A stretch of DNA of 64,000 nt from Patescibacteria group bacterium (GCA_023484045.1 JAMDAA010000035.1:10966-74965), one strand, 5' to 3'; positions 1 through 51,565 are shown, counted from the stretch's first letter. Made by a program: numbers and translations. Notes: generated by a model not told the origin, from the letters alone.

Positions 1-624
1 TATCCATGTTTCTGGTTGTGTAAAGTCTGTCGACTCCGATCGGAATACAACTTTTAAACCCATCTTCCATCTGCAAAGTTGCGGTTTTCGGAACGATTAA
101 AAGAGAGGAAAGTGTTGTTAAAAGTTTTTTTGACGTTTCCTCGAGTTCCGGCAAGGTTTTACAGGAGATTGTAACGTATAGGCTGAATTGAAAAAACCGC
201 TCGACGCCTTTTGCGAGCTCTTCTTGTAATGCTAAAGCGTCCTCCAATGCTGCTGTGACCTTTGGGTCGATTACTCTTCCTTGTTCGGCCTCCGATGAAA
301 TCGTCGCTTCCATTTCAGCGACTTTTCGTCGTAAATCGGTTAATACGTCACCCGAAAAAGTCGGATAGCAAAACATCGAAATGTTCATCGTGTTGCCAAA
401 ATCGATTAATGGCTCGAGCCAATTCGGAGATACAAAGCGCGGATAGCCGACGATAAAAAAAGTTCTGTAAAATCTTTCCCCAATTCTGATATAGCGAAAA
501 TCAACTTCGATTGAAGACGGCGCGATAATATCAATAAGTGACACCATGCCTTTTTCGACCGCTGGTATTACATTGCTAGCAGGCGTTTTAGGCGCCACAG
601 CTTTATTTTTATTTTTACCGAATA
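1..624 (-). CDS. VirB4/TrbE-like conjugative ATPase, N-terminal 208 aa only (partial; continues beyond window start)
   Basis: Own translation of the reverse strand from the ATG at 624: MSLFGKNKNK...IEVDFRYIRIGERFYRTFFIVGYPRFVSPNWLEPLIDFGNTMNISMF. This matches the N-terminal CagE/TrbE/VirB4-type domain pattern. The frame is open to coordinate 1. It is not in the ORF track because no stop codon lies inside the window. Confidence 0.45.
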
Positions 625-627
625 GAC

Positions 628-1281
628 TCATACGCTTTTTTGTGCCGTAATCATCGGCGTTTTTATGTCGTTACTTTCAACCAATGTGTTTTCTTCGGCT
701 TCTTCGTTATAGACAGAATAGTAAAGTTTTACCAATTCTTCTTTTTCGAGTGTTTTTGCTTTGAGTCCGAGTCTTGCGAGTTGCGTATTCAGAGAGCTCG
801 ATTTTGTATCCAGGGCTTGTTTTGCCTGCTCCTTCGAATTTTTGTCTTTAATAACGCTCGCCGCGCCTTTCTCAAGCGGCGAATAAGGAATAACAATATA
901 GAATTTTTTATCCAGGACTTCGTTTACTTTTATCAATTCTTGTACGAAATCGTGATACAAACTTATTTGCAGCGAAAGTTTTTCGTTGGTCGATTTTTTA
1001 ACTTCTTCTTCGAGTAATTTTAAATAAGACGAGATATCGACTTTTTTGTTTCGGATCAACACTTGTATCGGAAAAGAAAGTGAATTCAGAAGCGACGCGT
1101 AAGAATATATTTTTGTATTTTGTTCTTCTCTTGACAAAAGCGAAAAGTTAGTCGCCTGAATTTCGGTGATCAAACACGCGTTTCCGCCTGTCAAAAACAC
1201 GATATTCCCCTCGATATCGACAATTTCAGTAAATTTTTGGGTAGACCCTGCTTTTATTTTGTTTGGTTTATCGATCGCCAT
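628..1281 (-). CDS. Hypothetical protein in the T4SS-like operon, between the PrgI-like and VirB4-like genes
   Basis: 217-aa ORF separated by 3 nt from both the upstream PrgI-like gene and the downstream VirB4-like start. Charged and coiled-coil rich. No family recognised. Confidence 0.4.
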   Translation of the reverse strand: MAIDKPNKIKAGSTQKFTEIVDIEGNIVFLTGGNACLITEIQATNFSLLSREEQNTKIYSYASLLNSLSFPIQVLIRNKKVDISSYLKLLEEEVKKSTNEKLSLQISLYHDFVQELIKVNEVLDKKFYIVIPYSPLEKGAASVIKDKNSKEQAKQALDTKSSSLNTQLARLGLKAKTLEKEELVKLYYSVYNEEAEENTLVESNDIKTPMITAQKSV

Positions 1282-1283
1282 AA

Positions 1284-2534
1284 TTAATTACCTGCCGCGC
1301 TTGAAAACAATGCTTTTCTTAACTCTTCACGTTCGTCGCTCGAAATTACCTCAAGCGGCGAGATTATTTCTCCCGACACGATAAGCTCAATGACGTCAAA
1401 CTTATTTTTCCCTTTTGGGTCTTCAAATGCGACAGTATACGTGCCGTTTAAAAGCGGCGTCGCTGACGCAAATTGGCCCAAGCCGTTTGTTTTAAACGCG
1501 CGAACAGGATTTCCTTCTTTATCCTTTACCTCGATTAAAATACCCGGCAATACGTTTCCTCTGGCGTCTTTAACGATTCCTGTTATTAGATTTGGAACAT
1601 CGGGCGTTATTGGCGCGCCGACAGTTTTGCCCATCGTTTTTGGAATCGTTCTCACGTTTTGAGTTTCGGCTTTGGGTTGTATTGCCCCCGGTGTAAACAC
1701 TTTTTGCTGTTGTGTTTCGATTGTTTTTTTAAGGTTCAATAATTGCTGTTCAAATTGATTTCGTTCTGTCATAACTTCGTTTAACTGCTGTTCTAGTTCC
1801 AATACTTTTTGATGTATGTTTGCGGTCACAGCTGGTTCTTTCTGAATCGCTTCCTCTTTTTTTGCCTCCTCGAGTTCTTTTGTGATCAACGCCGCTTCTT
1901 TTTGAAGCACCTCGTTTAAATTTTGTTGATTTTTAGGTTGGGAAATGATAGGTTTTTCTTCTTTTCTGGCGGAGCCAGATCCCGCTTCGCGGGACTTTTT
2001 TTCCTCATCTGTCAAAATTATGCGTGGCGGTCCGCCAGGTGGCTGAGAAACCGTTGGTTGGGCCATGCCACCACTAAGCATCGACGAAAGAGACTTAAAA
2101 AACATCATTTCCTTTTCGTCGTGTTTCTCTTTCGGTTTTTGTGGAAGATTTGCTAAATACATCTGAAGTTTGTTTTGCGATTGCGCTTGTGTTTGTTTTG
2201 CCGGGCCTTGAATTTTTTGAATTACGATCGGGACTAATAACTGCCCTCCGAGTTTTTGATAAACGTACTGATTGGGAGAAAAAAGCGCTCTTAAAAAATT
2301 GCCAAACATTATATCGAGCGGTCTTCCTTCGATCGGCAAAAAAGCCAAAGAAACACCAAGTAAAGCAGAAAACAAAGAAATGGAATATTTTATAAGCCAA
2401 AAAATGGGTGCGTAAAAAAATAAAAATGCCAAACCGACTCCACCGGCCAAAAACGCAAACTGCTTAACCGTCATGTCGCCGATCAATTTAAATTTAAATC
2501 CGGTAACATCCTGGGGTATTGGATGATTTTCCAT
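1284..2534 (-). CDS. PrgI-family (VirB3-like) membrane protein with a long C-terminal coiled-coil / beta-rich extension
   Basis: The N-terminus IPQDVTGFKFKLIGDMTVKQFAFLAGGVGLAFLFFY...GRPLDIMFGNFLRALFSPNQYVYQK matches the PrgI-family pattern (xPQxIxxEDKIxGPxTxKQFxYLAGG, two TM segments, then YxWxK). Residues 100-416 are an extension with a Q-rich coiled coil and a C-terminal beta-sandwich-like region. Confidence 0.55.
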   Translation of the reverse strand: MENHPIPQDVTGFKFKLIGDMTVKQFAFLAGGVGLAFLFFYAPIFWLIKYSISLFSALLGVSLAFLPIEGRPLDIMFGNFLRALFSPNQYVYQKLGGQLLVPIVIQKIQGPAKQTQAQSQNKLQMYLANLPQKPKEKHDEKEMMFFKSLSSMLSGGMAQPTVSQPPGGPPRIILTDEEKKSREAGSGSARKEEKPIISQPKNQQNLNEVLQKEAALITKELEEAKKEEAIQKEPAVTANIHQKVLELEQQLNEVMTERNQFEQQLLNLKKTIETQQQKVFTPGAIQPKAETQNVRTIPKTMGKTVGAPITPDVPNLITGIVKDARGNVLPGILIEVKDKEGNPVRAFKTNGLGQFASATPLLNGTYTVAFEDPKGKNKFDVIELIVSGEIISPLEVISSDEREELRKALFSSAAGN

Positions 2535-2542
2535 AATATTTT

Positions 2543-3016
2543 AAAATCCGAAATTCGAATATCGAAATTCGAAACAAATTCAAATTTTTAATTTTTAAAT
2601 ATCTAAATCTATTCTGACTTTCGAATTATCGATCCAAATATGTTCATTAATTCTGTTGCTTCTTTAATCAATACACCTCTTTCTTTTTCTAATTCAGGAT
2701 TATTGTTTATATCTATTAGCAATAGCCAATATCTACTTTCTTTTACTTCTTTCCTACAAATTTTAATCCTCAAAACAAAATCTTTTTTACTTAACGATTC
2801 ATTCGCCTCAATGTAATTTGCTCCAACCGACCCAGATGCTCTTATAAGTTGTATGCCGTCTTCGATGTTTCCGACTGTTTTAACTACTTTTTTAACAAAA
2901 ATTCTTACTCTCTTAGCAAAATTAAATGTCCTTTCCTCTAGGTCGTATTGTTTTGTATTTTTGATTTCTGTCATTTAGAGATTGTTTCGGGTTTCGGACT
3001 TCGTGCTTCGGATTTT
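2543..3016. other. Four-helix-bundle ORF cassette 1, bracketed by an imperfect inverted repeat (IR-L 2543-2577, IR-R 2983-3016)
   Basis: IR-L is aaaatccgaaattcgaatatcgaaattcgaaacaa. The reverse complement of IR-R is aaaatccgaagcacgaagtccgaaacccgaaacaa. Both are built of NNNCGAA heptamers and identical at both ends. The IRs start about 9 nt outside the ORF start codon and about 30 nt after the stop. Confidence 0.45.
2609..2974 (-). CDS. Four-helix-bundle protein (TIGR02436-type; 23S rRNA intervening-sequence protein / DGR Avd family)
   Basis: 121 aa with ...FAKRVRIFVKKV...LIRASGSVGANYIEANESLSKKDFVLRIKICRKEVKESRYWLLL, the characteristic IAEG/ANxxEA...S.KDF...ALGS/CRKE...E..YWL pattern. Confidence 0.75.
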   Translation of the reverse strand: MTEIKNTKQYDLEERTFNFAKRVRIFVKKVVKTVGNIEDGIQLIRASGSVGANYIEANESLSKKDFVLRIKICRKEVKESRYWLLLIDINNNPELEKERGVLIKEATELMNIFGSIIRKSE

Positions 3017-3180
3017 AATGCATAAAACTGTCTTAAATAAGATTATTATGTGAAAAAAATGTTTGCAAGATTATCAAAGTGGGTCAAACGTTACTATAAA
3101 TCAGCCTGCCCCGTGAAAATTGCTCTCTGAGCCGTATTCGAATAGAATAAAAAAGGCGAAAGAGGCTAGTTGTGAAAAAT

Positions 3181-3528
3181 TTATTTATTGAGGCAGACAT
3201 CAAAACCAAAACTTTTTATGCAACCTACCCCTGTAATATAACTTATAAAGCTTATAATAAAGTAGGAAAGAAGAATAATTACGAGTCCGATAATAGCGTA
3301 GGTTAATGTTTTTTTTGCGCCTTCGACTTGCTTTTGGTCGCCGCCAGATGTAATAAATTTAATACCCGAGATTATAACGATTATTACTGCAACGACTCCG
3401 GCCAAAATCAGCGCCCAGATCAAACCATTGTGAAATACGGCGGGAAGACATTTTAAAGTTGCAACTTTATCGCCTTTTTCAGTTGTTTCTAGACATTCAG
3501 GAACAAATGTTTCCCAGTCCACTCCCAT
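3181..3528 (-). CDS. TrbC/VirB2-like pilin-type small membrane protein (paralog 1)
   Basis: 115 aa with a hydrophobic helix, then GIKFITSGGDQKQVEGAKKTL, then a second hydrophobic helix. This two-TM plus conserved GG(D/N)xxKxxxAK loop is shared by all five paralogs. Confidence 0.5.
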   Translation of the reverse strand: MGVDWETFVPECLETTEKGDKVATLKCLPAVFHNGLIWALILAGVVAVIIVIISGIKFITSGGDQKQVEGAKKTLTYAIIGLVIILLSYFIISFISYITGVGCIKSFGFDVCLNK

Positions 3529-3573
3529 ATCTTAAGATTATCAAACAGCGTTAGAAAAGACAAGTTGAATTTA

Positions 3574-3981
3574 TTAGGAGCCGATCAGGGGAGGTATCGT
3601 AAGATTTGTAATATTAATTCCGAACAATTGCGCTACAAACGATATAATAAAGTAAGCCAATATCGCAATAATTAATCCTACAATCGCCGCCACAATCTGA
3701 TTTCTCGCTCCCTCTACTTTCGATTTATCTCCGCCGGAAGTAATCCATCTTATTCCGCCGATGATTAAGAAGAATACGGCGATAATAATCGCGATAATAA
3801 TAACAGCGATTATGACTCTACCGACCATCGGGCCGAAATCTGTCGGCGTAATCAAACATATTTGTCTGAGAATGTCATTTTTCTCTTTTTCTTGGCAAAT
3901 AGCAAGGTCTACGGCAAAAGCAGGATTTGCCAGTAATAGATACGAGATAAGTCCTGTTATCGGGGCGATAATTTTCCTCAT
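3574..3981 (-). CDS. TrbC/VirB2-like pilin-type protein (paralog 2). Start trimmed to MRKIIAPITG with a signal peptide
   Basis: Signal peptide ending ANPAFA, then the core FGPMVGRVIIAVIIIAIIIAVFFLIIGGIRWITSGGDKSKVEGARNQIVAAIVGLIIAILAYFIISFVA. This core is identical to paralog 3 over 68 aa. Confidence 0.5.
   Translation of the reverse strand: MRKIIAPITGLISYLLLANPAFAVDLAICQEKEKNDILRQICLITPTDFGPMVGRVIIAVIIIAIIIAVFFLIIGGIRWITSGGDKSKVEGARNQIVAAIVGLIIAILAYFIISFVAQLFGINITNLTIPPLIGS
3635..3838. repeat. 204-bp perfect direct repeat, copy A (inside pilin paralog 2); identical to 4213-4416
   Basis: Direct base-by-base comparison of the two regions. Identity begins at acaaacgatataataaagtaagcc and ends at ggccgaaa. 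Flanks diverge immediately on both sides. Confidence 0.9.
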
Positions 3982-4043
3982 TAGATTTATGATATGGAGA
4001 TTTTTGGAGTTTGTCAAGAGGAAAATATTTTAAATTTAACTGT

Positions 4044-4571
4044 TTACCGACATTCAAAAATTGGCGGGAGTAGTCCAGGATTAATTTGGGTACAGGTTCC
4101 CGAAGTGCAGGATCCAGATGTATTCCCGCCGCAAACAGCAGACGAAGAGCTACTTCCGCCTATTAAATTTGGAATCGTGAGATTCGTAATCGTTATTCCG
4201 AATAATCCGGCCACAAACGATATAATAAAGTAAGCCAATATCGCAATAATTAATCCTACAATCGCCGCCACAATCTGATTTCTCGCTCCCTCTACTTTCG
4301 ATTTATCTCCGCCGGAAGTAATCCATCTTATTCCGCCGATGATTAAGAAGAATACGGCGATAATAATCGCGATAATAATAACAGCGATTATGACTCTACC
4401 GACCATCGGGCCGAAACTTTGAGGATTAAAACCGCAAAGTATCTTATTAAATCCTGTGTTGCCTCCTGCTCCGGCCTGACTGCAAACGTCAACCGTTACG
4501 TCGGCAAAAGCGGGTTTTATAAAAAAGAGATAAAAAAACAGAGTACTAAAAAATGCAAAAATTTTCCTCAT
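4044..4571 (-). CDS. TrbC/VirB2-like pilin-type protein (paralog 3) with a Cys/Gly/Ser-rich C-terminal tail
   Basis: Same start and signal peptide as paralog 2 (MRKIFAFF...KPAFA) and the identical 68-aa core. It has a divergent N-terminal region and a C-terminal GGSSSSSAVCGGNTSGSCTSGTCTQ tail. Confidence 0.5.
   Translation of the reverse strand: MRKIFAFFSTLFFYLFFIKPAFADVTVDVCSQAGAGGNTGFNKILCGFNPQSFGPMVGRVIIAVIIIAIIIAVFFLIIGGIRWITSGGDKSKVEGARNQIVAAIVGLIIAILAYFIISFVAGLFGITITNLTIPNLIGGSSSSSAVCGGNTSGSCTSGTCTQINPGLLPPIFECR
4213..4416. repeat. 204-bp perfect direct repeat, copy B (inside pilin paralog 3)
   Basis: See copy A. The offset between copies is 578 bp. Confidence 0.9.
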
Positions 4572-4616
4572 TAAATTTATAGTAGCTGGTTTTTAAAAAT
4601 TGTCAAGTATTATGGT

Positions 4617-4943
4617 TTATTTAAGATTACCGACTAAATTAGTCCCGAATAAGCCGCCTATAAAACCGATTATAAAGAATGCGAGAAGAATAATTACAAG
4701 TCCGATAATCGCAAAAGTAATTTTTTGCCTTGCTTTTTGGATCGCTTCTTTGTTTCCTCCGGATGAACTCCACTGAATTCCGCCCCAAATTAAAAAAATA
4801 AGCGCGAGGATAATCGAAACTACAAAAAGAATAACTATTGTATTTGAAATAATTTTCTGCAGAGTTCCTTCTCCGGCAGTCGGCACATTACCTGGAACAT
4901 TGATTTCTCCAAGCTGAGGAATATTTAATGCAAAAAGTTTCAT
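4617..4943 (-). CDS. TrbC/VirB2-like pilin-type protein (paralog 4)
   Basis: 108 aa: ...IVILFVVSIILALIFLIWGGIQWSSSGGNKEAIQKARQKITFAIIGLVIILLAFFIIGFIGGLFG. Confidence 0.5.
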   Translation of the reverse strand: MKLFALNIPQLGEINVPGNVPTAGEGTLQKIISNTIVILFVVSIILALIFLIWGGIQWSSSGGNKEAIQKARQKITFAIIGLVIILLAFFIIGFIGGLFGTNLVGNLK

Positions 4944-4944
4944 T

Positions 4945-6369
4945 TTAAGGAATTTTTAAAGACCATCCGGGAATATGTAATATATTAACTCCGATAAGTT
5001 CCAATATAAATATCGAAAATATTATAAATAAAAGACCCACAATGGTAGATGTTAAGGTTTCCTTTGCCCCCTGAACTTTTTCTGCATTTCCCCGAGACGT
5101 CATTAGTTTATAACCGGAATAAATAATTAATAAGAGGGCAATTCCACCAGAGAGACTAAGAGTAATTCCAAAAATGCTTGCTATAAAGTCTTTTGGGTCA
5201 GTGCCAATGTCGATTCCTAAACCGGTGGAAACCTTTTCACATTTATCATTTACTAGTCCACCGGGCGCGCAAACTGGCGCGGGAGGAGGGAACGATTGTT
5301 GGTCAGATGATTTGTCGTAAAGTATACACCCATAACCCTGATAACACCATCCGCTAGCAGAGCAATCGACATATGATGTTGGATCAGTAAATTCAGTTTG
5401 ATTTTTGATGTTTTGACACGTATTTTCGAAGCCATTCCAAATAAATTTATTTGAACAAACAGGACAGCTTGTTAATAAATCTGGATTCTGTGTCGGTTTA
5501 GGGATTGGAGTGTTTCTCGGAATCGGTGTTGGAGTATTTGTGCCTGCTGGAGCGGGATTAACTTTAAAGTTTAATGGGCACCAGTTATTGTATTGTATGG
5601 ATTCGGAATCACTACCAATATAGACCTCATAAGTTCCTAATTGGGATGGTGCTGAAAATTCATGTGCTAAAGTATTATTAGCATCAAGCGTAACTGGTTC
5701 TGGATTTTTTGCGTCCCAACTTCTGCCAAAATATACAGACTTTTTTGTTATTCCGGGCCATGTTACTTTGTACGTTAAACCTGCATTAGGGGTTGTATCT
5801 ATTAAATCTTGCGATTGTCCACATTGTGGGTTAACATTGACCGATGGCTGCGGGGTTGGTGTTGATGATTGATTTTGATCAGACTTAATAATATTAATTA
5901 CATATTCGTCAACTTGATTAAAAATATCACCGCCCAATGTAATAACCTTTTTTTTATTAAGGATAATGTCATATCTTCCCAGAACAAGGTTTTTTAGATC
6001 ATTTTTATCATCAACTACGAACTCGTGTTTTGTCGCTCCAGTATCATGAGTATCAAAAACAAAATAAGGATGTAATCCTTTTTTCCGTGCAAATTGAGCG
6101 CAATCATTATTATATGAATTCGTAAGCGTACTTTCTAAAAATACATATTTATCAAGATTTTGAATTTCTATTACATAACAAGTTCTTGGCTGGAGATTAG
6201 AAATCTTGATTTTAAAAGGGGAACCTTCTTTGAAATTATTTTCAGACGTGGCCACAATTTTTTCTGGATTTTCAGAGTCAGAGTTAGCAAATACATTCTT
6301 GGCAAAAGTTATTAAGTAAGAAAGGATAAAAACTATTATTAATAATAAAAGAAGATTATTTTTTCTCAC
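4945..6369 (-). CDS. Large secreted protein (about 400-aa Cys-rich extracellular region) fused to a C-terminal TrbC/VirB2-like pilin module
   Basis: N-terminal signal peptide. The long extracellular region has about 16 Cys and PTP-rich linkers. The C-terminal 75 aa, GGIALLLIIYSGYKLMTSRGNAEKVQGAKETLTSTIVGLLFIIFSIFILELIG, has the same two-TM pilin-like architecture as the four short paralogs. Confidence 0.5.
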   Translation of the reverse strand: MRKNNLLLLLIIVFILSYLITFAKNVFANSDSENPEKIVATSENNFKEGSPFKIKISNLQPRTCYVIEIQNLDKYVFLESTLTNSYNNDCAQFARKKGLHPYFVFDTHDTGATKHEFVVDDKNDLKNLVLGRYDIILNKKKVITLGGDIFNQVDEYVINIIKSDQNQSSTPTPQPSVNVNPQCGQSQDLIDTTPNAGLTYKVTWPGITKKSVYFGRSWDAKNPEPVTLDANNTLAHEFSAPSQLGTYEVYIGSDSESIQYNNWCPLNFKVNPAPAGTNTPTPIPRNTPIPKPTQNPDLLTSCPVCSNKFIWNGFENTCQNIKNQTEFTDPTSYVDCSASGWCYQGYGCILYDKSSDQQSFPPPAPVCAPGGLVNDKCEKVSTGLGIDIGTDPKDFIASIFGITLSLSGGIALLLIIYSGYKLMTSRGNAEKVQGAKETLTSTIVGLLFIIFSIFILELIGVNILHIPGWSLKIP

Positions 6370-6551
6370 TTCTTCATCGTAGAATAGTTAAAAAAGTTTT
6401 GCAACTAAGGAGAAAATTTGAGACCGCGGCCTTTTATTGTTTGGAGATGGATTGGGTTATTGGGACCAGCTTCGATTTTTCTGCGGAGTCGGTACAGTCA
6501 TCGGTTTTCGGTTGTCAGTTTTCAGAAATTTGTTTGTCGGTTTTCGGTTAA

Positions 6552-6926
6552 TCAGTCAAATTTTTGCCAGGAGGATAAAAGTTTGTTAAGTTTTCTAGAG
6601 AGAATTTTATATTTTTCTATTAGCCATTCGCAATCTTCAGTTCGGATTCTGGTATAAGTTTTTGCCACAATTTTTATTTCTCTAATATGAGTTATAACTT
6701 CATCTGATGACCCAAGTGCCATTGACAAAAACCTGCAGAATTCCCGAGGCGACCTTTTCTTGCCAAAGCCTTCTGCTATTTGAGGAGCAATTTTTTCTCC
6801 AGCTTCGTTTGCTTGGAATTTAAGCCTTCTATGAGTTAGAGGAAGTAAGTTTGTAATTCTATATAATGGTTCAAGGAGATCAAGTGACAAATTATAAACT
6901 TCAAGGTCAGTAACATCTTTAATCAC
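6552..6926 (-). CDS. Four-helix-bundle protein (TIGR02436 / Avd / IVS-protein family), copy 2
   Basis: MIKDVTDLEVYNLSLDLLEPLYRITNLLP...IAPQIAEGFGKKRSPREFCRFLSMALGSSDEV. Flanked by heptamer-repeat tracts at 6470-6551 and 6930-7000 that are roughly inverted with respect to each other. Confidence 0.75.
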   Translation of the reverse strand: MIKDVTDLEVYNLSLDLLEPLYRITNLLPLTHRRLKFQANEAGEKIAPQIAEGFGKKRSPREFCRFLSMALGSSDEVITHIREIKIVAKTYTRIRTEDCEWLIEKYKILSRKLNKLLSSWQKFD

Positions 6927-7000
6927 TCTCTTAGTCTATCAGATAAACAGATAACTGATAAACTTTTGTCCGAGAACAGAAAACCGGGAACTGATAACAT

Positions 7001-8377
7001 TTATGCAGTGAATTTCATTCCTCTCCCCTTAATTGTCTCCAGATGCTTTGGGTTATTTGGGTCTGTTTCTATTTTCTTCCGCAATCTAAAAATTAACTGA
7101 TCAAGCGCCTGGTCTGTTACTCCGGCCGTTGTTTGAGTATCTTTCCAGACCGAATTTATTATCTCTTCTCTCTCTATAATTTTTCCCTGATTTTCGATTA
7201 AATATTTTAAAAGCCGAAATTCAGCAGAAGTTAAATTCTCTGAAAGAACAAGTTCTCCTTTTTTAATCTCTCTTGCGTCTTGGTCGTAATGTATTTGTTC
7301 GTGGGCGGTTTCTTTTAATGTTTTAATATATTCTTCAAAAATCGGAATTGCGATCTGTTGATTTTTTAACATCCCGACTTTTTCAAGATATATTATGTTT
7401 TCTTTTTCGATATTAAATACCGTGCTTGAAATATTAGATATTAAATATTCTTGTTCGGCCGGAATAAACGAAGACCAGATTTCAAAAAGCCCTTTTTGAA
7501 CCGGTTTTTGTTCGAGCAAAAATTCGATAAGTTTCTTAGCGTTTGGCTGTAAGTCCTTATCTGCTAATATACTTTCCGCACAAAGTCTCGTCAGTTTTCC
7601 GTGTCCTCCGGTTAAATCGATAATTTTGTCCAAAAGTTTTATGTCGATATCTTTTCCCGATATTTTCTGAAGATATGAAATTCTAAAATCTGTTCCCGGT
7701 TTATCATAAAGCGAAAGATAAATAATATTTCCGGCGATAAACTCGTAAAAGTCTGCAAAAAGCGCCGGTTCGATTAAGTCTTCAAGCGGCCGGGGAAGCG
7801 AAAAAATAACAGAAAATCTGTACTTGGCGATGTTTCTAAGGGTTTTAAGATTTATAAAAAACTGATCGGAAACTTTTGAAATATAGTCTTCGAATCTGTC
7901 GAAAAGAAAAACAACGGCTAGTTCCTTTTCGATCGACAAAAAATTAACAGCTTCTTTTAGCCCCTGAAAAAGAACGATTTCATCATTTTGAATCATATGG
8001 GATTTGAATATTTTATGGAGTGCTTCGTGTTCTGCATTCAGCTTCCGGTCGCGGAGCGAATCGGCCAAAGACAAAAACATAAATTTTAGAACGTCAAAAA
8101 GAGATCGGTTTTTGACTTCGGAAAAATTCATGTAGACAAAGTGAAGCCATTTTTGATCTTCGCCTGAATGTTTAATGCGGACATTCCGGTTATAGGCAAG
8201 AAGTCTTAATAGATTTGATCTTCCTGTTCCGGGAAGGCTTACGATCTGACACGATTTCCCTCCTTTAATAAAACCCAGAATTTTTTCGATTTCTGCAAAA
8301 CGAGAGTCGTCGGGGTATAAAGATTCAAAATGAAGACCTTCCATTGCTTCATTGTTAAATTGCTTGATTGTTTTCAT
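7001..8377 (-). CDS. P-loop NTPase fused to a C-terminal OmpR/PhoB-type winged-helix DNA-binding domain (putative regulator)
   Basis: N-terminal SLPGTGRSNLLRLL P-loop-like motif followed by an ATPase-like region of about 300 aa. The C-terminal FRLLKYLIENQGKIIEREEIINSVW...ALDQLIFRLRKKIE...IETIKGRGMKF is a typical trans_reg_C winged helix. Confidence 0.6.
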   Translation of the reverse strand: MKTIKQFNNEAMEGLHFESLYPDDSRFAEIEKILGFIKGGKSCQIVSLPGTGRSNLLRLLAYNRNVRIKHSGEDQKWLHFVYMNFSEVKNRSLFDVLKFMFLSLADSLRDRKLNAEHEALHKIFKSHMIQNDEIVLFQGLKEAVNFLSIEKELAVVFLFDRFEDYISKVSDQFFINLKTLRNIAKYRFSVIFSLPRPLEDLIEPALFADFYEFIAGNIIYLSLYDKPGTDFRISYLQKISGKDIDIKLLDKIIDLTGGHGKLTRLCAESILADKDLQPNAKKLIEFLLEQKPVQKGLFEIWSSFIPAEQEYLISNISSTVFNIEKENIIYLEKVGMLKNQQIAIPIFEEYIKTLKETAHEQIHYDQDAREIKKGELVLSENLTSAEFRLLKYLIENQGKIIEREEIINSVWKDTQTTAGVTDQALDQLIFRLRKKIETDPNNPKHLETIKGRGMKFTA

Positions 8378-8434
8378 TGTTTGATATTTTAGTTAAAAGT
8401 TCAAAGTTAAAAATTAAAAATTACAACTCAAAAT

Positions 8435-8806
8435 TCAAAGTTTATTTCTTCCTTTTAACGTAGAAATACTTGAACCAAGGATTTTTACAAGTTCATCTGT
8501 TTCTTTTAAGAGTGCTTCAATTTCTGCTATTAATTTGGGATCAAGATCTTTTGATAAAGCCAGCCAAAATTTAGTTTCGTTCCCGCTTTTTAAAGCGTGA
8601 TTTAAGAAATTAACAAAATCTCTTTTTGAACTAGCCGCTTGTGCTTCGATAATATTAGCCCCGATGGATGTCGCTGCTCTTAAAAGCTGATCGCTTATAA
8701 CCCATGCAGATCTTTTATTGGGGAACTTATCAACCAGATTAATTATTCTTCTGGCCAAAATAAACGCCCGGCTTATTAACTGTTTTTTAAAATCTTTGTT
8801 ATTCAT
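8435..8806 (-). CDS. Four-helix-bundle protein (TIGR02436 / Avd / IVS-protein family), copy 3
   Basis: ...RAATSIGANIIEAQAASSKRDFVNFLNHALKSGNETKFWLAL... Flanked by inverted heptamer-repeat tracts at about 8390-8440 and 8807-8860, both containing ttaaaagttcaaagt. Confidence 0.75.
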   Translation of the reverse strand: MNNKDFKKQLISRAFILARRIINLVDKFPNKRSAWVISDQLLRAATSIGANIIEAQAASSKRDFVNFLNHALKSGNETKFWLALSKDLDPKLIAEIEALLKETDELVKILGSSISTLKGRNKL

Positions 8807-8938
8807 AACTTTTAATTTTAAACTTCAACTTTGAACTTTGCACTTTGAACTTTTAATTTATTTTATAAGTATATCGTTAGCTTCTTGTAAAGTAAATATC
8901 AAGCTCCTTTACCTCTTTTTCTATAAACTGCGGGTGCT

Positions 8939-11575
8939 ATGAAAGAGGTTTTTAGGCCAACGCCCGAATTGACAAACAAGGCTCCGGTGCAATATTCTAG
9001 AACTGGAGATATTTTTATGGGGGAAAACAGTGGAGAAAAAAATCCTTCTGGACAGAACAATGCAGCTGAACAAGTCAAGACCCCAACCTCTCAGCAGCTT
9101 ATTGCTGGACTAGAATCTATGCACCCGGAAAATTGGGGGTTAAGAGAATCATTTATTCGAGGAAGAAAACAACTAGGTCCGGAATCGATTGTGGATCGAT
9201 TGGATCCGGTTGCTGCCTCAATTCTATCGATCGATCCCACAGGATTTCATGAAGATCCGATTGTAAATGCGATCAATTATTTACAGCTAGAAGCCAGAAA
9301 GGGGAGAGTCGATTTATCTACTTTAAGGGAAATCCGCGAACCGATTTTAAAAGATTTTCTCAGTCCTGATCGAAAAATAAGTTCTGCGGAGGCGACTGAG
9401 TTTTTAAGTAGGACAAGAGACATATTAACCTTGGCGCAAGGAATAAAAGAGCTGGAAGAAGAGGAAGAAAAAAAGGCCGAGGAGGGGAGAAAAAAAGCAG
9501 AAAGAGTAACTGAAGAAGAGAAACTTAAGGATTCAGAAGTGATCGAAAGACTATTTCAGGAAAACATGTTGCGGATTGAACAGCGTGAAATGACTACTCA
9601 AAGCCAGGCGTGGTTTGAAGAAACAACCATGATTAATAAGTTAATAAACTTGGCAGAAGATCTTGGAGATAAAGACCCGGGAGGTAAATTACGTCAACGG
9701 TTAGTCGCACAAAAAAACGTGCGCTTTGCCCTTCACGACATCAATTTCTATGCGCGGGCAGGAATCAAGGAAAATTTTCCCCACATGAGTGAGGCAGCAA
9801 ACCAAATCAATACAGAACATTTTTATTTGGTACACGCCTTGCCTGGCGTAGCGCCAGTTATGCGTATTTTTGAAGAAGAGTATTCTAAGGCAATCCAACA
9901 AACAGGAAGAATTACAGATATCGAGGTCCAAAAAGTCCGTGCCGATGTAGAAAAAAGGTTTAATACGGTAGCTACGATGTACGGTTTAACAGAGCCTCAG
10001 GCGAAAACAGCTTTTAGACTCGGAGAAAACCTATTTAATACTAAAACTCGTTTAGCAGTTTATATATCGCGTGGCGAGATTCCGCAAAATTTGGAGTATC
10101 TACGCACAGATCCTTGGAGTGAATTTGTGCGTTTATATTCTGCTTATGAATTTGAAGTTGGCAAATGGAGATCAATACCAGAAAGCGCAAAAGACTTCGC
10201 CCGATTTTTAGGTAAAACAGCCTTCGACAAAATTCTCAGTGTCCCCGATCACGATTCTTCAATATGGAGAACTTTTGGAATAATCGAAGGATTAAATCAA
10301 AAAGGATATTACAAGTGGGGTCTTTTTATGAGGTTAAAATTTGCTTATAAAGACAAAAAAGCCTTATACGGCGAGGATGGAAAATCGGGCGAAGATCGAA
10401 AAAAAATGGAGAAAAGAGCGGATGAATTAAGGGATGAAATTGTCCAGGATTTTTTGAAAGGAGGAGCATCAAGAGAAGAAGCGGACAAAATGGGAGACAG
10501 AAGAGTCGCGGGATACTGGAAAGACATGCAAAAAGAAATAGATACTAAAACGCATATGGGCAAAACTGGAGAAACCGGGGAGCCTCAACTTAAACAAGTT
10601 TTTAGAGAAGATATTCTTAAGGAAATTAATCATTATATGCCCGAAGAATTAGCGCGGGCATATTGGGGAGATGAGCAATTAGCGAATGTAATTAAAGAAT
10701 GCGGAGGGGCGGAAGTGTTCGGTGAATTATGCAACGAATTAACCCGGATTCGAGAAGAGGAATTAAGAGATGAAAAAGAAAGAGTAAAAGGTCTTAGCGC
10801 TGAGGATCGTGAAAAAAGACAAGACAATTATCAAAATTTTGACAGTAAGGTTACTCATCTTAAGCCAGAGCTTCGTAATCTTTATGCAAGGCTTCATGAT
10901 TTTTTTGAAGAAATAGATGGAAAAGATGGAAAAGGAAGAACAAGAATACAGATTCTCACAGATGAAGATGCAATTATTGGCGGAAGAAAAAATCCTTTGT
11001 ATGACAAAATTTGGTCTGAAAAAGACATGCCATTTGAAGAATTAGAAGATACTATAACACCTGGCTTTGTCGGCCATAAAACATTGGGAAGAAATTATAA
11101 TGATCATGCTGCAGCATTTGGTACCTTAGAAATACTTGAAGAGCTCGCAAAAAATCCAACAAATTTGGAAAATTTACAAAAACTCCACGGAACATTTTCA
11201 AAGTGGCTCGGTTTGGAAACTGAAGAAAAATTAATCGCCCAAATCGCAGAGTCCGTATTAAAATATCATGCCCAAGATGAAGCTTTTAGGCATTTAATGC
11301 CTGGAATTTCAAATCTTCTTGGCTGGGTCATAAGAGGTGGTTCTTCACCTGCGCGAAGAAGATTGGGGAAAAAAGGAGCACAATGGGATTCAGGAACATT
11401 AAATGATCAAATAAATGAAATGCAGGCAAAAGGGTTATTGAGCAAGGAAAAGGCAGATGAACTACGGCAAAAATTGCACATTGTATTTGGTTTTAGGATT
11501 CTACCCTTAGTTCAATTATTTATACTTACTATGGTTTTTGAGATTATCTACAGCCAGGGTCCCCAGAAGAAATAA
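8939..11575 (+). CDS. Large (878 aa) highly charged hypothetical protein with a single C-terminal hydrophobic segment
   Basis: Long intact ORF, rich in E/K/R with coiled-coil-like stretches. The C-terminus is ...FGFRILPLVQLFILTMVFEIIYSQ. No recognised catalytic motif. Confidence 0.5.
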   Translation: MKEVFRPTPELTNKAPVQYSRTGDIFMGENSGEKNPSGQNNAAEQVKTPTSQQLIAGLESMHPENWGLRESFIRGRKQLGPESIVDRLDPVAASILSIDPTGFHEDPIVNAINYLQLEARKGRVDLSTLREIREPILKDFLSPDRKISSAEATEFLSRTRDILTLAQGIKELEEEEEKKAEEGRKKAERVTEEEKLKDSEVIERLFQENMLRIEQREMTTQSQAWFEETTMINKLINLAEDLGDKDPGGKLRQRLVAQKNVRFALHDINFYARAGIKENFPHMSEAANQINTEHFYLVHALPGVAPVMRIFEEEYSKAIQQTGRITDIEVQKVRADVEKRFNTVATMYGLTEPQAKTAFRLGENLFNTKTRLAVYISRGEIPQNLEYLRTDPWSEFVRLYSAYEFEVGKWRSIPESAKDFARFLGKTAFDKILSVPDHDSSIWRTFGIIEGLNQKGYYKWGLFMRLKFAYKDKKALYGEDGKSGEDRKKMEKRADELRDEIVQDFLKGGASREEADKMGDRRVAGYWKDMQKEIDTKTHMGKTGETGEPQLKQVFREDILKEINHYMPEELARAYWGDEQLANVIKECGGAEVFGELCNELTRIREEELRDEKERVKGLSAEDREKRQDNYQNFDSKVTHLKPELRNLYARLHDFFEEIDGKDGKGRTRIQILTDEDAIIGGRKNPLYDKIWSEKDMPFEELEDTITPGFVGHKTLGRNYNDHAAAFGTLEILEELAKNPTNLENLQKLHGTFSKWLGLETEEKLIAQIAESVLKYHAQDEAFRHLMPGISNLLGWVIRGGSSPARRRLGKKGAQWDSGTLNDQINEMQAKGLLSKEKADELRQKLHIVFGFRILPLVQLFILTMVFEIIYSQGPQKK

Positions 11576-11605
11576 GTTATTAATTATAATTTTAGCTAAA
11601 AACTC

Positions 11606-13291
11606 CTATTGAAACCGAAATATTTGTCGGGCAGCACCCCACATGCCTGCTTTTTGAGTTGGGTTACCCGGTAAAGGAGTTCGAGACGCAGCAACTGCTT
11701 TCCCAGAACCACTAATTGCTCCTGTTCCAACCCCGAGCGCAGTAACAATCGGAGAAAGATCAACTTTAGGCGGCTTTAAGACTTGTTGCATATAAGTTAC
11801 TACACGTGGTGTAAGAAGTATAAATCCCATTCCGATTAAAGAACCGATTGGACCTACTTCTCCTCCAGTTGGATTTCCGATAAGCGGAGGTACAAACAAT
11901 GAACTATTTTTGTTAAAAATATTCATCATCGTGTTTCCTAATAATAGCATTGCAATTGTGGTAGGAAATGCTAATAGGTAAGAAAGCATGTAACGTAGCC
12001 AGCTTACAAACCCTCTTCCTCCGACAGCCGGGATAATCCCGGCTACGATCCAAAAAGGCGAGAGGGTAATACCGATTAGTATGGCGACATAAGCCATAAC
12101 AAGTTTAAACCAAAGTCTAAAAAGGGCCCAAAGGATCGCGATAAAAACAATAAGGAATACTAGCAAATAAGGGAGACCAAGTCTTAATGTAGATTGAGCG
12201 AGTCCATAAGAAACTAAACCCGCAGAGATACCGACCCCGGCTGAAATTAAAGGGGTTCCTATCATGCTCGATACTTTTGCCCCAGTTCCAATTCCGATAG
12301 ATGTACTAGCTATGTCGATTAACCAATTAAAAACATTATTTTTTAAACCACTTAATCCAGCAAATCCCTTCAGAAAATTAATAAATTCTGAGGGGCCCAA
12401 AAATGATATGACATTTTGATTTATGTCAAAAATCTTCCCCACAACCGCCGTAGCTGAACTGGCAATATTATTTGCCATTCCGGAAATATTTCCAATATTA
12501 GTTACACCTGGTCCATTACTAGTTCCACCAACAGCTTCTAAAACATTTCTCCCTTGTAAAATTGTTGGATTTAAATTGCTTACATCTATAGCTAAATTAG
12601 CGTTCGAGAATACCCCAAAAGTTAAATACATAAGTATCCACATAAGATCAATCAAAAACCCTGCAATAGCGAAGGAGAATGTAACCATGATGACACCGAT
12701 AATGATTCGCGGGATCTGGTTTTGTATAGTCATTACGGTTCGGGGATCAATTTTAACCCTCAACATTATCATTAATCCTATTATGATAAATATAAGTATA
12801 AAGACGAAATAAACCATATTTCGAAATATAACCCATAATTGCATTAACGGTTTTATGCTATCGAGACCAGTCGATGCATATACGGGTTTTGCGAGGCCAA
12901 AATTACGCGCCAAATAATTAAAATAATCACTTGTATGTATTGGTGGGGTATAAAGCGTTGCGATCATGTTCCCCATAACTCCGATCGCGCCTCCGCCGTT
13001 TTCGACAAAGCCGATTTTCCCAGTTTTTTGATCCACGCCTAAACACTTTTGATTTGGATTTACCGGATCGACACCTGTTAACTGACAAGTCATGGCAGAC
13101 ATAACTTCGATCATCGCATTTTGTGTCCAGGTATGAAGATTTTGGGGAATATCAGGATTAGTGTTAGGAGCAGCATATTGATTTTGTTGGTGTGTTTGTG
13201 ATTGGGCATATGACGGCGTGATAGAAAATAGAAGATAGAAAATAGAAGATAGAAAGAAAAGAGCGACGATATGGACAGTTTGTTTAAACAT
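11606..13291 (-). CDS. Polytopic membrane protein with signal peptide, possibly VirB6/TrbL-like
   Basis: 561 aa. Signal peptide, then a soluble domain of about 110 aa, then at least seven hydrophobic helices and a Gly-rich C-terminus. The architecture resembles VirB6/TrbL. The assignment is by context and topology only. Confidence 0.35.
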   Translation of the reverse strand: MFKQTVHIVALFFLSSIFYLLFSITPSYAQSQTHQQNQYAAPNTNPDIPQNLHTWTQNAMIEVMSAMTCQLTGVDPVNPNQKCLGVDQKTGKIGFVENGGGAIGVMGNMIATLYTPPIHTSDYFNYLARNFGLAKPVYASTGLDSIKPLMQLWVIFRNMVYFVFILIFIIIGLMIMLRVKIDPRTVMTIQNQIPRIIIGVIMVTFSFAIAGFLIDLMWILMYLTFGVFSNANLAIDVSNLNPTILQGRNVLEAVGGTSNGPGVTNIGNISGMANNIASSATAVVGKIFDINQNVISFLGPSEFINFLKGFAGLSGLKNNVFNWLIDIASTSIGIGTGAKVSSMIGTPLISAGVGISAGLVSYGLAQSTLRLGLPYLLVFLIVFIAILWALFRLWFKLVMAYVAILIGITLSPFWIVAGIIPAVGGRGFVSWLRYMLSYLLAFPTTIAMLLLGNTMMNIFNKNSSLFVPPLIGNPTGGEVGPIGSLIGMGFILLTPRVVTYMQQVLKPPKVDLSPIVTALGVGTGAISGSGKAVAASRTPLPGNPTQKAGMWGAARQIFRFQ

Positions 13292-49186: not shown

Positions 49187-51565
49187 ATGTTTTTACAGAC
49201 ACCATCGCTTGAAAATTTAGATACACTCATTATCTCATCTTTACTCGGTTTTTTAGCCGCAGCTATTTTGGTTTTGGGTTTGGCCGGAATTTTATATATC
49301 ATATTTCTAGTTTATAAAAACCGGAACCGCGAGAAAGAATCTTTAAATTCGACACTTCTTCAAATTTCTTTACCGCGTGACAACGAAATTAAAATCGATG
49401 CCGCAGAACAACTATTCTCGAGTCTTGCGTCGATTGGGAAAAGCGGAATGTTTTCTTTTTTAAAACCGCAACCTCATTTATCTTTCGAAATCGTCGGGGT
49501 GCCAGGGGATATCAGCTTTTTTGTATATGTTCCAAATTCGATTCGCGACCTCGTCGAAAAGCAAATTAACGGCGCATATCCAGACGCAGAGATAAAACCT
49601 GTAGATATAGGAAGTTATAATAAAAAAGAATATACGGTTGGAAATGAATATAATATTTTTTCAGAAGCAGGAAAGGTCGCGTTCACCTCTTTAAAACTCA
49701 AATCATCGAATTACCACCCGATAAAAGTTTTTAAAGATCTACCGACAGATCCGCTATCATCGATAACATCAGTTTTAGCAAAGATGACAGAAGGAGAGGG
49801 GGCGGCGATTCAGATTTTAATAAGTCCGGCCGATGACAAGTGGAGGAAACAGGGACGATCTTATATAGCAAAAACTAAAAAAATTGAAGCTAATCCCGAA
49901 ACTGCAAAATATGCATCAGACTCTAAAGAACTCGAGGCGATCGAAAGCGAAATATCAAAGTCCGGATTTAACACGGTCGTGAGAATAGTTGTGTGCTCAA
50001 GTACGATCGAATCTGCCAACGCGCACCTGAGCAATATAAAAACAAGTTTTGGACAGTTTAGCGGTCTTAATTCTTTTAAGAAAAACCGTCATTGGTTCAA
50101 AGGGCTTTTTATGAATGACTTTATTTATAGATATATGCCGCTTTTCGACCAAACCTCGGTCATGTCAAGCGAGGAGTTGGCGACAATATTTCATCTGCCG
50201 AATAAAAGCATCACAACTCCGCATATTCATTGGGTAACGGCCAAACGCGCTCCGGCTCCGGCGCAGATTCCGGAAAGCGGTTTGTACCTTGGCAAAAGTT
50301 CGTACAGAGGAATATCAAAACCCGTTTATATCGGACTCGAAGATCGGAGAAAACACATGTACATAATCGGAAAAACAGGCGTTGGAAAATCCGAATTTAT
50401 GAAAGAAATGATCATGCAGGATATAAAAGCGGGTGAGGGAGTTGCGGTTATCGATCCGCACGGAGATTTAATCGACGATATTTTACTATTAATGCCTTCA
50501 AACAGATCAGAAGACGTAATTTTATTCGATCCGTCTGACACCCAAAGACCGATGGGTTTTAATATGCTTGAGGCTCAAACAGAGGAACAAAAGCATTTGG
50601 TAACAACCTCAATTATAGGACTCATGTATAAACTTTTCGATCCGCATCAAACCGGAATTATCGGTCCTAGATTTGAACACGCGATTAGAAACGCGATGTT
50701 GACTGTTATGTGTGAGCCGGGAAATACTTTTGTCGAAGTTGTCCGTGCGCTTACAGATGCTGCATTTGTTCAGGAGCTTTTGCCAAAAGTTCAGGATCCG
50801 ATCATCAGGCGTTACTGGACAGATCAAATCGCGCAAACTTCGGATTTTCATAAGTCCGAAGTTTTGGATTATATCGTTTCTAAATTCGGCCGATTCGTCA
50901 CGAATAAAACGATCCGAAATATTATCGGGCAATCAGACAGCGCGTTTAATTTTAGAAAAGTAATGGACGAAGGAAAAATTTTATTGGTCAATCTTTCAAA
51001 GGGAAAAATAGGGGAGGAAAATTCTAACTTCTTGGGTTTAGTTCTTGTGCCTAAAATATTAATCGCCGCGATGTCGCGTCAGGACATAGCGAGAGAGCAA
51101 CGACGAGACTTTTTCTTATATGTTGATGAGTTTCAGAATTTCGCGACGCCAGATTTTGCGCAGATTTTATCAGAAGCCCGAAAATACAAGCTTAATTTAA
51201 CCGTTGCGAACCAATTTATCGGCCAAATGGAAGAAGAAATTAAAAATGCGATTTTTGGAAACGTAGGAACGGTCGTTGCGTTCAGAGTCGGAGTAACAGA
51301 CGCAAATTATTTACAGCATGAATTCCAGCCGGTTTTTACAGAAGCGGATTTAATAAACGTCGAAAGATTTAACGCCTACGTCAAGACGGTAGTAAACGGC
51401 GAACCGGTTCCACCGTTTTCGATGGATTTAGTAAAAGACATTAATAAAGAAAAAGAATTACAGAACCCGAGAGTCGCAGAGCTCGTTAAAGAACTTTCAA
51501 GGCTTAAATACGGGAAAGACGCAAGAGAAATCGAAAACGAAATCGCCGAAAGAGCCAGGTTGTAA
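49187..51565 (+). CDS. VirD4/TraG-like (or VirB4-like) type IV secretion ATPase with an N-terminal TM anchor
   Basis: N-terminal hydrophobic helix pair (LIISSLLGFLAAAILVLGLAGILYIIFLVY). Walker A IIGKTGVGKSEF followed by AVIDPHGDL. Walker B-like LYVDEFQNF. 792 aa. Confidence 0.55.
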   Translation: MFLQTPSLENLDTLIISSLLGFLAAAILVLGLAGILYIIFLVYKNRNREKESLNSTLLQISLPRDNEIKIDAAEQLFSSLASIGKSGMFSFLKPQPHLSFEIVGVPGDISFFVYVPNSIRDLVEKQINGAYPDAEIKPVDIGSYNKKEYTVGNEYNIFSEAGKVAFTSLKLKSSNYHPIKVFKDLPTDPLSSITSVLAKMTEGEGAAIQILISPADDKWRKQGRSYIAKTKKIEANPETAKYASDSKELEAIESEISKSGFNTVVRIVVCSSTIESANAHLSNIKTSFGQFSGLNSFKKNRHWFKGLFMNDFIYRYMPLFDQTSVMSSEELATIFHLPNKSITTPHIHWVTAKRAPAPAQIPESGLYLGKSSYRGISKPVYIGLEDRRKHMYIIGKTGVGKSEFMKEMIMQDIKAGEGVAVIDPHGDLIDDILLLMPSNRSEDVILFDPSDTQRPMGFNMLEAQTEEQKHLVTTSIIGLMYKLFDPHQTGIIGPRFEHAIRNAMLTVMCEPGNTFVEVVRALTDAAFVQELLPKVQDPIIRRYWTDQIAQTSDFHKSEVLDYIVSKFGRFVTNKTIRNIIGQSDSAFNFRKVMDEGKILLVNLSKGKIGEENSNFLGLVLVPKILIAAMSRQDIAREQRRDFFLYVDEFQNFATPDFAQILSEARKYKLNLTVANQFIGQMEEEIKNAIFGNVGTVVAFRVGVTDANYLQHEFQPVFTEADLINVERFNAYVKTVVNGEPVPPFSMDLVKDINKEKELQNPRVAELVKELSRLKYGKDAREIENEIAERARL

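Follow-up and report, generated by a model that had tools for sequence, protein, structure and literature searches.

The 64,000-nucleotide stretch of DNA from a Patescibacteria group bacterium analyzed here (GCA_023484045.1, JAMDAA010000035.1:10966-74965; hereafter the window) carries within its first 13,291 positions a gene cluster for a type IV secretion system (T4SS). This locus is of the Gram-positive style, resembling the FATA class of mating-pair formation systems (MPF-FATA), and it combines an array of VirB2-like pilin genes with genes for PrgI/VirB3, VirB4 and a VirB6-like protein, and with a distant VirD4 gene. In our reading, to which we assign a probability of about 0.82, the region is a chromosomal, origin-proximal T4SS typical of Patescibacteria, is part of a Candidatus Levybacteria genome, and mediates contact-dependent exchange with a host rather than conjugation. 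Systems of this kind have already been published, pilin arrays of 2-11 genes included, and the window holds a typical copy of them and no new kind of system. What is new is modest and incremental, namely the assignment of a VirB6 in Microgenomatia, four fixed pilin classes, a head-bearing pilin, a regulator, a gene-conversion tract, and cassettes resembling the intervening sequences (IVS) of 23S rRNA genes in an mRNA operon. An earlier reading, made from the sequence alone, had described a colinear set of genes on the minus strand from position 6369 down to 1 and had compared it with the Gram-positive-style secretion sets of bacteria of the candidate phyla radiation (CPR). All of the open reading frames (ORFs) that it listed were found on the minus strand at the positions it gave, and the profile matches of the components show that its identification of the core was right. 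The two tests it had named for its own refutation, whether the small membrane proteins match pilins and whether the completed ATPase is VirB4-like, both turned out in favor of that identification.

The central component is a VirB4-like ATPase, of which the window contains the first 210 codons (1..631, minus strand) before the gene is cut by the window edge. A public contig that is identical to window positions 1-3092 (0 mismatches) adds 3,028 bases beyond this edge (contig L001) and encodes the full protein of 662 aa, by which the truncated ORF was verified as a VirB4 N-terminus. On NF045971, the model of the VirB4-like CD1110 family (752 positions; cutoff 325), the full protein scores 389.8 bits and covers positions 184-733, and it has Pfam matches to P-loop_TraG (98.5 bits), AAA_10 and DUF87. 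It also matches the solved Thermoanaerobacter VirB4 domain (PDB 4ag5, E = 3e-47) and contains the motifs Walker A (GKSGAGKS) and Walker B (LLILDEAW). The neighboring gene (628..1281, minus strand), the stop of which overlaps the VirB4 start by 4 nt, encodes a 217-aa protein that had been listed as an unknown. This label can be replaced, since the protein aligns to positions 28-179 of the CD1110 VirB4 model (E = 1.3e-5). Further alignments cover positions 110-288 of VirB4_plasma (E = 2.2e-9) and, with 26.4 bits (cutoff 200; E = 5e-6), positions 13-200 of 201 of the TrsD/TraD model NF041427, and a precomputed match to the TraC-like family PF26593 is recorded for it. Thus, the N-domain of VirB4 is not contiguous with the ATPase here, the 662-aa protein and the separate 217-aa protein splitting the CD1110 profile between them. 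Judged by these alignments, the 217-aa protein is a predicted TrsD-like, detached N-terminal domain of VirB4, and such a split is a known arrangement in Patescibacteria and in pGO1 according to the survey of Quinonero-Coronel et al. 2025 (PMC12102498).

Only the TrsD-like gene lies between VirB4 and the gene for a PrgI/VirB3-like membrane protein of 416 aa (1284..2534, minus strand). This protein matches PF12666 with 29.3 bits (cutoff 27) at aa 5-92, which covers profile positions 1-91 of 91, and has hydrophobic segments at aa 26-70 that correspond to two N-terminal transmembrane (TM) helices. The PF12666 part is followed by about 320 aa, consisting of a low-complexity or coiled-coil linker and a C-terminal CarboxypepD_reg-like beta-sandwich (PF13620, 30.9 bits, under the cutoff of 32.3). 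The extension of roughly 300 aa reported earlier for this PrgI-family protein is therefore real, but it is not unusual. A long PrgI of the same architecture (about 400-450 aa) is present in 74 of the 80 related loci described below, and the 120 database homologues listed out of 1,583 all have the same length and both domains, from which we conclude that the extension is a trait of the lineage.

To the other side of the pilin genes, the window encodes a divergent, VirB6/TrbL-like polytopic membrane protein of 561 aa (11606..13291, minus strand). The protein itself has no direct match in Pfam, PF04610 included, and a profile of its family found no relevant match among PDB sequences. Its membership in the VirB6/TrbL family, which had been proposed before, is supported through the homology of close relatives and through a polytopic helical fold that resembles solved VirB6. 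Directly upstream of the pilin array, as in at least 31 related loci, lies a gene for a one-component regulator of 458 aa (7001..8377, minus strand). The C-terminal OmpR/PhoB winged-helix DNA-binding domain of this regulator is recognized by Trans_reg_C with 72 bits, and only aa 360-457 match response regulators in PDB and NCBIfam. There is no receiver domain, and the 360-aa N-terminal region has a P-loop-like motif (LPGTGRSNLL). At a distance of 36 kb from the cluster, the window encodes a VirD4-like type IV coupling protein of 792 aa (49187..51565, plus strand). The earlier description of this protein as a VirD4/TraG-like ATPase with an N-terminal TM anchor holds, as it has a hydrophobic N-terminus and three Pfam domains above cutoff: TrwB_AAD_bind (34 bits, cutoff 20.5), T4SS-DNA_transf (30.3, cutoff 20.1) and TraG-D_C (27, cutoff 22). 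It contains Walker A (GKTGVGKS) and Walker B (FLYVDEF) motifs and reaches none of the NCBIfam equivalog cutoffs, the best score being that of SXT_TraD (57.7 bits). In Patescibacteria, the gene for the coupling protein normally lies far away from virB4 (PMC12102498).

A search with VirB4 in species-representative genomes yielded 80 related loci (L003-L082), onto which the window proteins were mapped. Nearly all of the informatively named loci belong to Candidatus Levybacteria (class Microgenomatia), and the VirB4 identity across the loci is 67-90%. The order VirB6-like, regulator, large pilin, three to five small pilins, long PrgI, TrsD, VirB4 is kept in these loci, and a TrsD-like gene adjoins virB4 in 78 of them. 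In the closest relative (L003), the genes past virB4 encode a charged, bitopic protein, then a secreted peptidase of the M23 family and a protein of 400 aa, and finally DnaN; this gene order agrees with the published origin-proximal position. The remainder of the window is made up of housekeeping genes, including those for ribonucleotide reductase, penicillin-binding proteins, glycolytic enzymes, FtsH, tRNAs and the transfer-messenger RNA (tmRNA).

The VirB2-like part of the system is an array of five genes on the minus strand, all of which pass the gathering score of the T4SS_pilin family PF18895 (26.6 bits) with 28.7-42.8 bits; the array proposed earlier is thereby established as one of pilin-family genes. 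It starts with the large class 5 gene (474 aa, 4945..6369). In the second position, which is conserved, stands class 4 (108 aa, 4617..4943; 35.4 bits), followed by two copies of class 2/3, namely copy B (175 aa, 4044..4571; 28.8 bits), which has an extra Cys-rich C-terminal tail, and copy A (3574..4017; 28.7 bits), with a signal peptide, a mature N-terminus that varies, and the Met at 3984 as its likely true start. The last gene, here as always, is that of class 1 (115 aa, 3181..3528; 42.8 bits), whose product has two TM helices. The five proteins match one another at E-values from 1e-8 to 1e-19, and no further ORF of the PF18895 family exists elsewhere in the 64 kb. Five neighboring genes that each match at E <= 1e-6 cannot be an array by chance. 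Nor is the array unusual, contrary to what had been supposed. Of the related loci, 49 extend for 8 kb or more upstream of virB4. Four to six pilin genes are present in 39 of these (four in 27, five in 9, six in 3), with one to three in 4 loci and none in 6, and the literature reports arrays of 2-11 (PMC12102498). Four classes could be distinguished, in the order class 5, 4, 2/3, 1. This order is exact in 26 of 54 loci, and most of the other arrays deviate by one extra copy of class 2/3 or class 5. The window holds the canonical four-class set plus a second class 2/3 copy. That the four classes recur in a fixed order speaks for separate structural roles of their products and against interchangeable variants.

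The extra gene appears to be of recent origin. Within otherwise diverged genes (window 3574-4571), copies A and B share a tract of 201 nt with 100% DNA identity. The copies differ strongly in their 5' part, and their 3' part contains 10 synonymous versus 5 non-synonymous codon differences; together with the identical tract, this points to a recent gene conversion. The fifth pilin gene, copy B being the extra one, would thus have arisen by recent duplication or gene conversion within one class. Over the local alignment the two copies are 72% identical, whereas the reported maximum within an array is 54% (PMC12102498). Each copy retains a promoter-like site inside a 26-nt repeat (3965-3990 and 4555-4580); it should be noted here that consensus scans for promoters and terminators gave the same counts in the locus as in shuffled sequence and are thus uninformative.

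The class 5 pilin, always encoded by the first gene of the array, differs from the others in its architecture. It consists of a signal peptide, a variable beta-rich head (about 360 aa) that includes Pro/Thr linkers and a Cys-rich module, and a C-terminal pilin domain (PF18895, 29.6 bits at aa 394-457). The homologues, with total lengths of 267-802 aa, have in common only the C-terminal 20% or so, that is the pilin domain and a short Cys-containing lead-in (55-75% identity), while their N-terminal heads are unrelated between genomes. Some of them carry fn3, CarboxypepD_reg or peptidoglycan-binding domains. The AlphaFold2 (AF2) model contains a confident helix-loop-helix (helices 392-424 and 429-463, predicted local distance difference test scores of 81-90) and a beta-rich head, the N-terminal 360 residues of which are of low confidence; for this reason, Ig-like Foldseek matches in the head are not meaningful. 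Taken together, these features suggest that class 5 combines a conserved pilin anchor with an exchangeable surface head, making it a candidate adhesin. The 2025 survey states that no adhesins were detected, and term searches of the same source (PMC12102498) found no mention of a head-bearing pilin class, a fixed four-class order or an OmpR-type regulator.

These components suggest how the machine may work. VirB4/TrsD, PrgI and the VirB6-like protein would form the membrane translocon, and the M23 peptidase encoded beyond virB4 in the closest relative would open the cell wall. The small pilins might polymerize into a short filament or conduit, on which the head-bearing class 5 pilin would serve as adhesin or cap, and the OmpR-type protein would control the operon. 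The assembled machine would carry out contact-dependent exchange with a host cell, either exporting effectors or importing host molecules, and would not conjugate. The function suggested in the sequence-only reading, host attachment or DNA uptake by way of a variable filament, is a plausible candidate. In Southlakia epibionticum, both the T4SS and its array of six pilins are essential (reviewed in PMC12857230 and PMC11665869), the system having been shown to be so in strain ML1 by Wang et al. 2023 (as cited in PMC12857230).

Several points weigh against this reading. No VirB8-like or VirB1-like gene was found inside the window. The cutoff of the classical TrbC/VirB2 family in Pfam (PF04956, 27.9 bits) is reached by none of the five window pilins, the best of which, class 1, scores 16.8 bits (E = 0.008), with lower scores or no match for the others; of the earlier TrbC/VirB2 assignment, membership of all five in the PF18895 pilin family has stood and a classical PF04956 match has not. 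A profile of the Levybacteria pilins matched no solved VirB2/TraA pilin among the PDB sequences, and a Foldseek search with the class 5 model returned nothing significant, the best pilus match being a conjugation pilin of A. pernix (E = 2.1, target-normalised TM-score 0.55). The filament of pilin-family proteins is a predicted one, and we assume that the VirD4-like protein belongs to the same machine. The PrgI extension may lie inside or outside the cell. Finally, the sequence gives no pointer to the direction of transport or to its substrate.

This last point bears on the possibility that the system is an importer, either of DNA, like the ComB T4SS of Helicobacter, or of host nucleotides and other building blocks, with the pilin structure serving as conduit. 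An uptake role has been proposed in reviews that cite the H. pylori precedent (PMC11665869, PMC12857230); it would fit bacteria of the CPR, which are without many biosynthetic pathways, and is compatible with the fact that no relaxase was detected among the scanned window ORFs of at least 100 aa, and with the ComF-family gene at 18602-19447. Yet nothing in the sequence points inward any more than outward, and VirD4-type coupling proteins are usually tied to export. In S. epibionticum the loss of ComEC abolished competence and left viability unaffected, so that the essential role of the T4SS in that organism is not ComEC-dependent DNA uptake. We therefore regard a dedicated importer as possible but not probable.

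Secondly, the five pilin-family proteins might not form a pilus at all, but might instead be small integral membrane subunits of the translocon or of an envelope-spanning channel. Classical Gram-positive T4SSs are described in the literature as being without VirB2 pilins, the evidence for a pilin fold is weak given that the profile search against PDB and the Foldseek search yielded no pilin match, and four classes in a fixed order are what one would see for obligate subunits. On the other hand, all five proteins pass PF18895 and one reaches TrbC/VirB2 at E = 0.008, the predicted helix-loop-helix hairpin appears to fit the VirB2 design, and the reviews describe the homologues in Saccharibacteria as structurally VirB2-like. 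Moreover, the pilin anchor of class 5 bears a large secreted domain that is beta-rich and varies greatly, an arrangement that makes most sense for a surface-exposed structure. An array that forms no pilus is thus unlikely.

The possibility that the locus serves an integrated conjugative element or a degraded plasmid as its transfer module, moving DNA from cell to cell by conjugation, was considered because of the family to which VirB4 belongs (NF045971, the CD1110 family of monoderm conjugation ATPases, as in CTn2 of C. difficile) and the presence of a VirD4-like coupling protein. In addition, a tRNA-Ile gene (anticodon TAT, 52347-52419, plus strand) just downstream of the VirD4-like gene adjoins genes for a helix-turn-helix protein and a tyrosine recombinase. 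This recombinase, however, is XerC/XerD-like, and there is no relaxase among the ORFs scanned; in the literature, relaxases are reported from only 103 Patescibacteria genomes (PMC12102498). Housekeeping genes and tRNAs surround the cluster, which occupies the same origin-proximal position across the 80 Levybacteria genomes with VirB4 proteins that are 67-90% identical; this constancy indicates vertical inheritance. Given that no relaxase was detected among the scanned ORFs, and given the housekeeping context and the vertical inheritance, we consider conjugation very unlikely and reject it in favor of an exchange with a host that depends on contact. Two genes, for proteins of 457 aa and 150 aa, immediately precede the VirD4-like gene (47302-49182, plus strand). 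Neither protein has a match in Pfam or NCBIfam, and a search of PDB sequences with the 457-aa protein likewise gave nothing significant; both might assist the coupling protein as accessory factors.

Within the T4SS operon, three cassettes on the minus strand, here named ivp1 to ivp3, encode proteins of another kind. The ivp1 cassette (2537..3034) contains an ORF at 2609-2974 between 44-nt inverted repeats (2541-2584 / 2975-3018). The ivp2 cassette (6485..7000), located between the regulator and class 5 genes, contains an ORF at 6552-6926 and inverted repeats at 6495-6516 / 6972-6993 with weaker complementarity of the flanks. The ivp3 cassette (8391..8859) contains an ORF at 8435-8806 between 50-nt inverted repeats (8393-8442 / 8807-8856). 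The four-helix-bundle cassette noticed in the sequence-only reading was recovered as ivp1, the ORF of which matches 23S_rRNA_IVP in Pfam and the four-helix-bundle protein model TIGR02436. The scores on PF05635 are 56.7 bits for ivp2 and 82.7 bits for ivp3, and the ivp ORFs tested pass PF05635 / TIGR02436 above cutoff. The arms of the cassettes are imperfect inverted repeats of 22-50 nt with heptamer-like tandem motifs. In the fold of the transcribed strand they join the flanks into a long stem around the ORF (z = -3.75 for ivp1, -2.25 for ivp3 and -0.62 for ivp2). Likewise, ivp genes across the 80 Levybacteria loci have flanks with a median complementarity of -35 kcal/mol versus -26 kcal/mol for the flanks of neighboring genes (p = 2e-6). 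The Rfam scan gave no matches in the T4SS region, and the window contains no rRNA gene.

Comparison of filled and empty sites showed that ivp1 was inserted, arms included, as a block of about 500 bp directly before the PrgI start; the block is absent from the closest relative, in which both sides are conserved. Similarly, the intergenic region that holds ivp2 in the window measures 21 bp in this relative. In different genomes the cassettes sit in differing intergenic slots. All 42 cassettes in the 80 loci lie upstream of virB4, between the VirB6 and TrsD genes, and downstream DNA of the same total length contains none (p about 1e-13). The orientation is that of the operon in 40 of the 42, and the ORF is intact in every one. 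We also scanned a metagenomic collection with the closer ivp subgroup as query, which gave another 80 loci (L083-L162). The flanks of these are again complementary (p = 1.8e-6 versus permuted partners), and T4SS genes are nearby in only 2 of the 80, which rules out that the ivp genes are T4SS-specific parts. Several unrelated metagenomic contigs bear the arm motif of ivp1 (AAATCCGAAGCACGAAATCCGAAACAA and its complement).

The closest parallel to these cassettes is the 23S rRNA IVS of Coxiella burnetii and Leptospira. The IVS of Coxiella measures 428-444 nt, has a terminal stem, heptamer repeats and an S23p ORF, and is excised by RNase III (PMC4990558). The window cassettes are similar in size (about 470-520 nt), in their terminal inverted repeats that form a predicted stem, in the heptamer-like repeats by the ORF, and in encoding a four-helix bundle of about 120 aa from the same family. 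They differ in their location between protein-coding genes of an operon instead of in helix 45 of the 23S rRNA, and in their ORF, which is decaying in Coxiella but intact in all 42 copies of the related loci. By analogy, the stems probably create RNase III-sensitive sites in the operon transcript. We conclude that the ivp cassettes are generalist selfish elements of the 23S rRNA IVS type that are lodged in an mRNA operon, and not parts of the T4SS. The "Avd-like cassettes" that had been seen as an unusual feature of the system are, then, sporadic IVS-type insertions flanked by inverted repeats, belonging neither to the apparatus nor to a diversity-generating retroelement (DGR), since they occur in many unrelated contexts and are accompanied by neither a reverse transcriptase, among the window ORFs scanned, nor a pair of template and variable repeats. 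DGRs are common in bacteria of the CPR, and the Avd-like genes of the window do sit among genes for variable surface proteins. That they mark a DGR which hypermutates the pilins is a negligible prospect even so, and despite the homology of PF05635 proteins to DGR Avd (PMC10053308) it is ruled out for the window, in which no reverse transcriptase was detected among the ORFs scanned, the sole long direct repeat is the pilin 2/3 core, identical and not adenine-mutated, and the ivp genes form discrete cassettes that one genome may have and a close relative lack, with relatives of their own that are mostly away from any T4SS.

Combining these elements, one may speculate that the filament is heteromeric and built from four obligate pilin classes, that class 5 is the missing adhesin with a fast-swapped head determining host specificity, and that the IVS-like cassettes act as RNase III sites at which the long transcript is divided into segments, tuning the ratio of pilins to machinery. 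As a whole we hold this proposal to be rather unlikely.

One gene in the cluster stands apart. On the plus strand, splitting the adjacency of the VirB6 and regulator genes, lies the gene for a charged, near-orphan protein of 878 aa with a C-terminal TM helix (8939..11575). It has no match in Pfam or NCBIfam. In the 80 loci no homologue was found by phmmer and only weak partial matches by tblastn, and among 1.84 billion proteins there are 3 other representatives. In the closest relative, a different large ORF without detectable similarity occupies the same slot (L003:2-2134, minus strand), so that the slot is positionally conserved and hypervariable in sequence. In the same relative, the genes for the last pilin and for PrgI are separated by an insertion on the opposite strand (L003:5901-7995, minus strand) that encodes a charged coiled-coil protein of 582 aa with a C-terminal TM helix and a protein of 114 aa; neither has a Pfam match or similarity to the 878-aa protein of the window. 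Homology between the window orphan and these large opposite-strand proteins at comparable positions was thus considered and could not be detected.

A few observations concern genes elsewhere in the window. The interval 18602-19911 holds the gene for the ComF-family (competence-related) protein, beyond which the opposite strand encodes a small HNH endonuclease that carries a double zinc ribbon; because the ComF ORF as called runs at its start into a tRNA-Ser gene of the complementary strand, translation probably begins at a more downstream position. The tmRNA gene (Rfam, 109.5 bits), which was not reported by ARAGORN, lies beside smpB (19947-20334 and 20370-20819, both on the minus strand). Among genes of sugar-phosphate metabolism, the segment 27694-28603 (minus strand) encodes an AbiEii-type nucleotidyltransferase toxin of 215 aa, the gene for which is overlapped at its upstream end by a 101-aa ORF, possibly that of the antitoxin.

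The T4SS of Patescibacteria is among the few systems that have been shown to be essential for an epibiotic lifestyle, and the comparison of 80 loci adds details that can be tested for Microgenomatia, a class whose components had been reported to be difficult to find: a candidate VirB6, a fixed set of four classes of pilins, one of which has an exchangeable head that could be the element of host recognition, and a dedicated regulator. The IVS-like cassettes indicate that elements of rRNA genes also colonize mRNA operons. This matters for the annotation of CPR operons and for the practice of reading "Avd-like" genes as signs of DGRs.

Among known systems, the closest is the T4SS of Patescibacteria itself. 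According to the 2025 survey (PMC12102498), the VirB4 proteins of this group form a clade related to the MPF-FATA class, TrsD adjoins VirB4, PrgI/VirB3 and VirB6 are present, relaxases are almost absent, and the position is origin-proximal; 441 arrays of 2-11 VirB2-like pilin genes are reported, especially from Microgenomatia and Saccharimonadia. The window locus is alike in its MPF-FATA-related VirB4, adjacent TrsD, PrgI/VirB3, VirB6 and PF18895 array, in the far-off coupling protein and the lack of a relaxase, and in a chromosomal position near dnaN/dnaA, seen here in the closest relative. It departs from the survey in two respects. Whereas the survey calls VirB6 scarce and a linkage of VirB3 to virB4 rare in Microgenomatia, both were found here and are conserved in Levybacteria, and the identity of the two class 2/3 copies over their local alignment exceeds the reported within-array maximum. 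With the MPF-FATA systems (Prg of pCF10, Trs of pGO1 and CTn2 of C. difficile) the locus shares a CD1110-type VirB4, a PrgI-type VirB3, a TrsD-like protein encoded ahead of VirB4, a polytopic protein resembling VirB6, a coupling protein of the VirD4 type, a cell-wall hydrolase near VirB4 (the M23 peptidase of the close relative), and the lack of an outer-membrane core. In contrast to these systems, the window has no relaxase or oriT and no PrgB-type adhesin, the locus is chromosomal and vertically inherited, and it possesses VirB2-like pilins, of which the classical systems have none, as well as the PrgI extension of about 320 aa. The amplification of VirB2 in Bartonella and Anaplasma is similar in that tandem paralogues of the VirB2 family lie by a T4SS, have variable exposed segments and show signs of recombination between copies, but the copies in Levybacteria fall into four classes of fixed order, one of which is fused to a large head.

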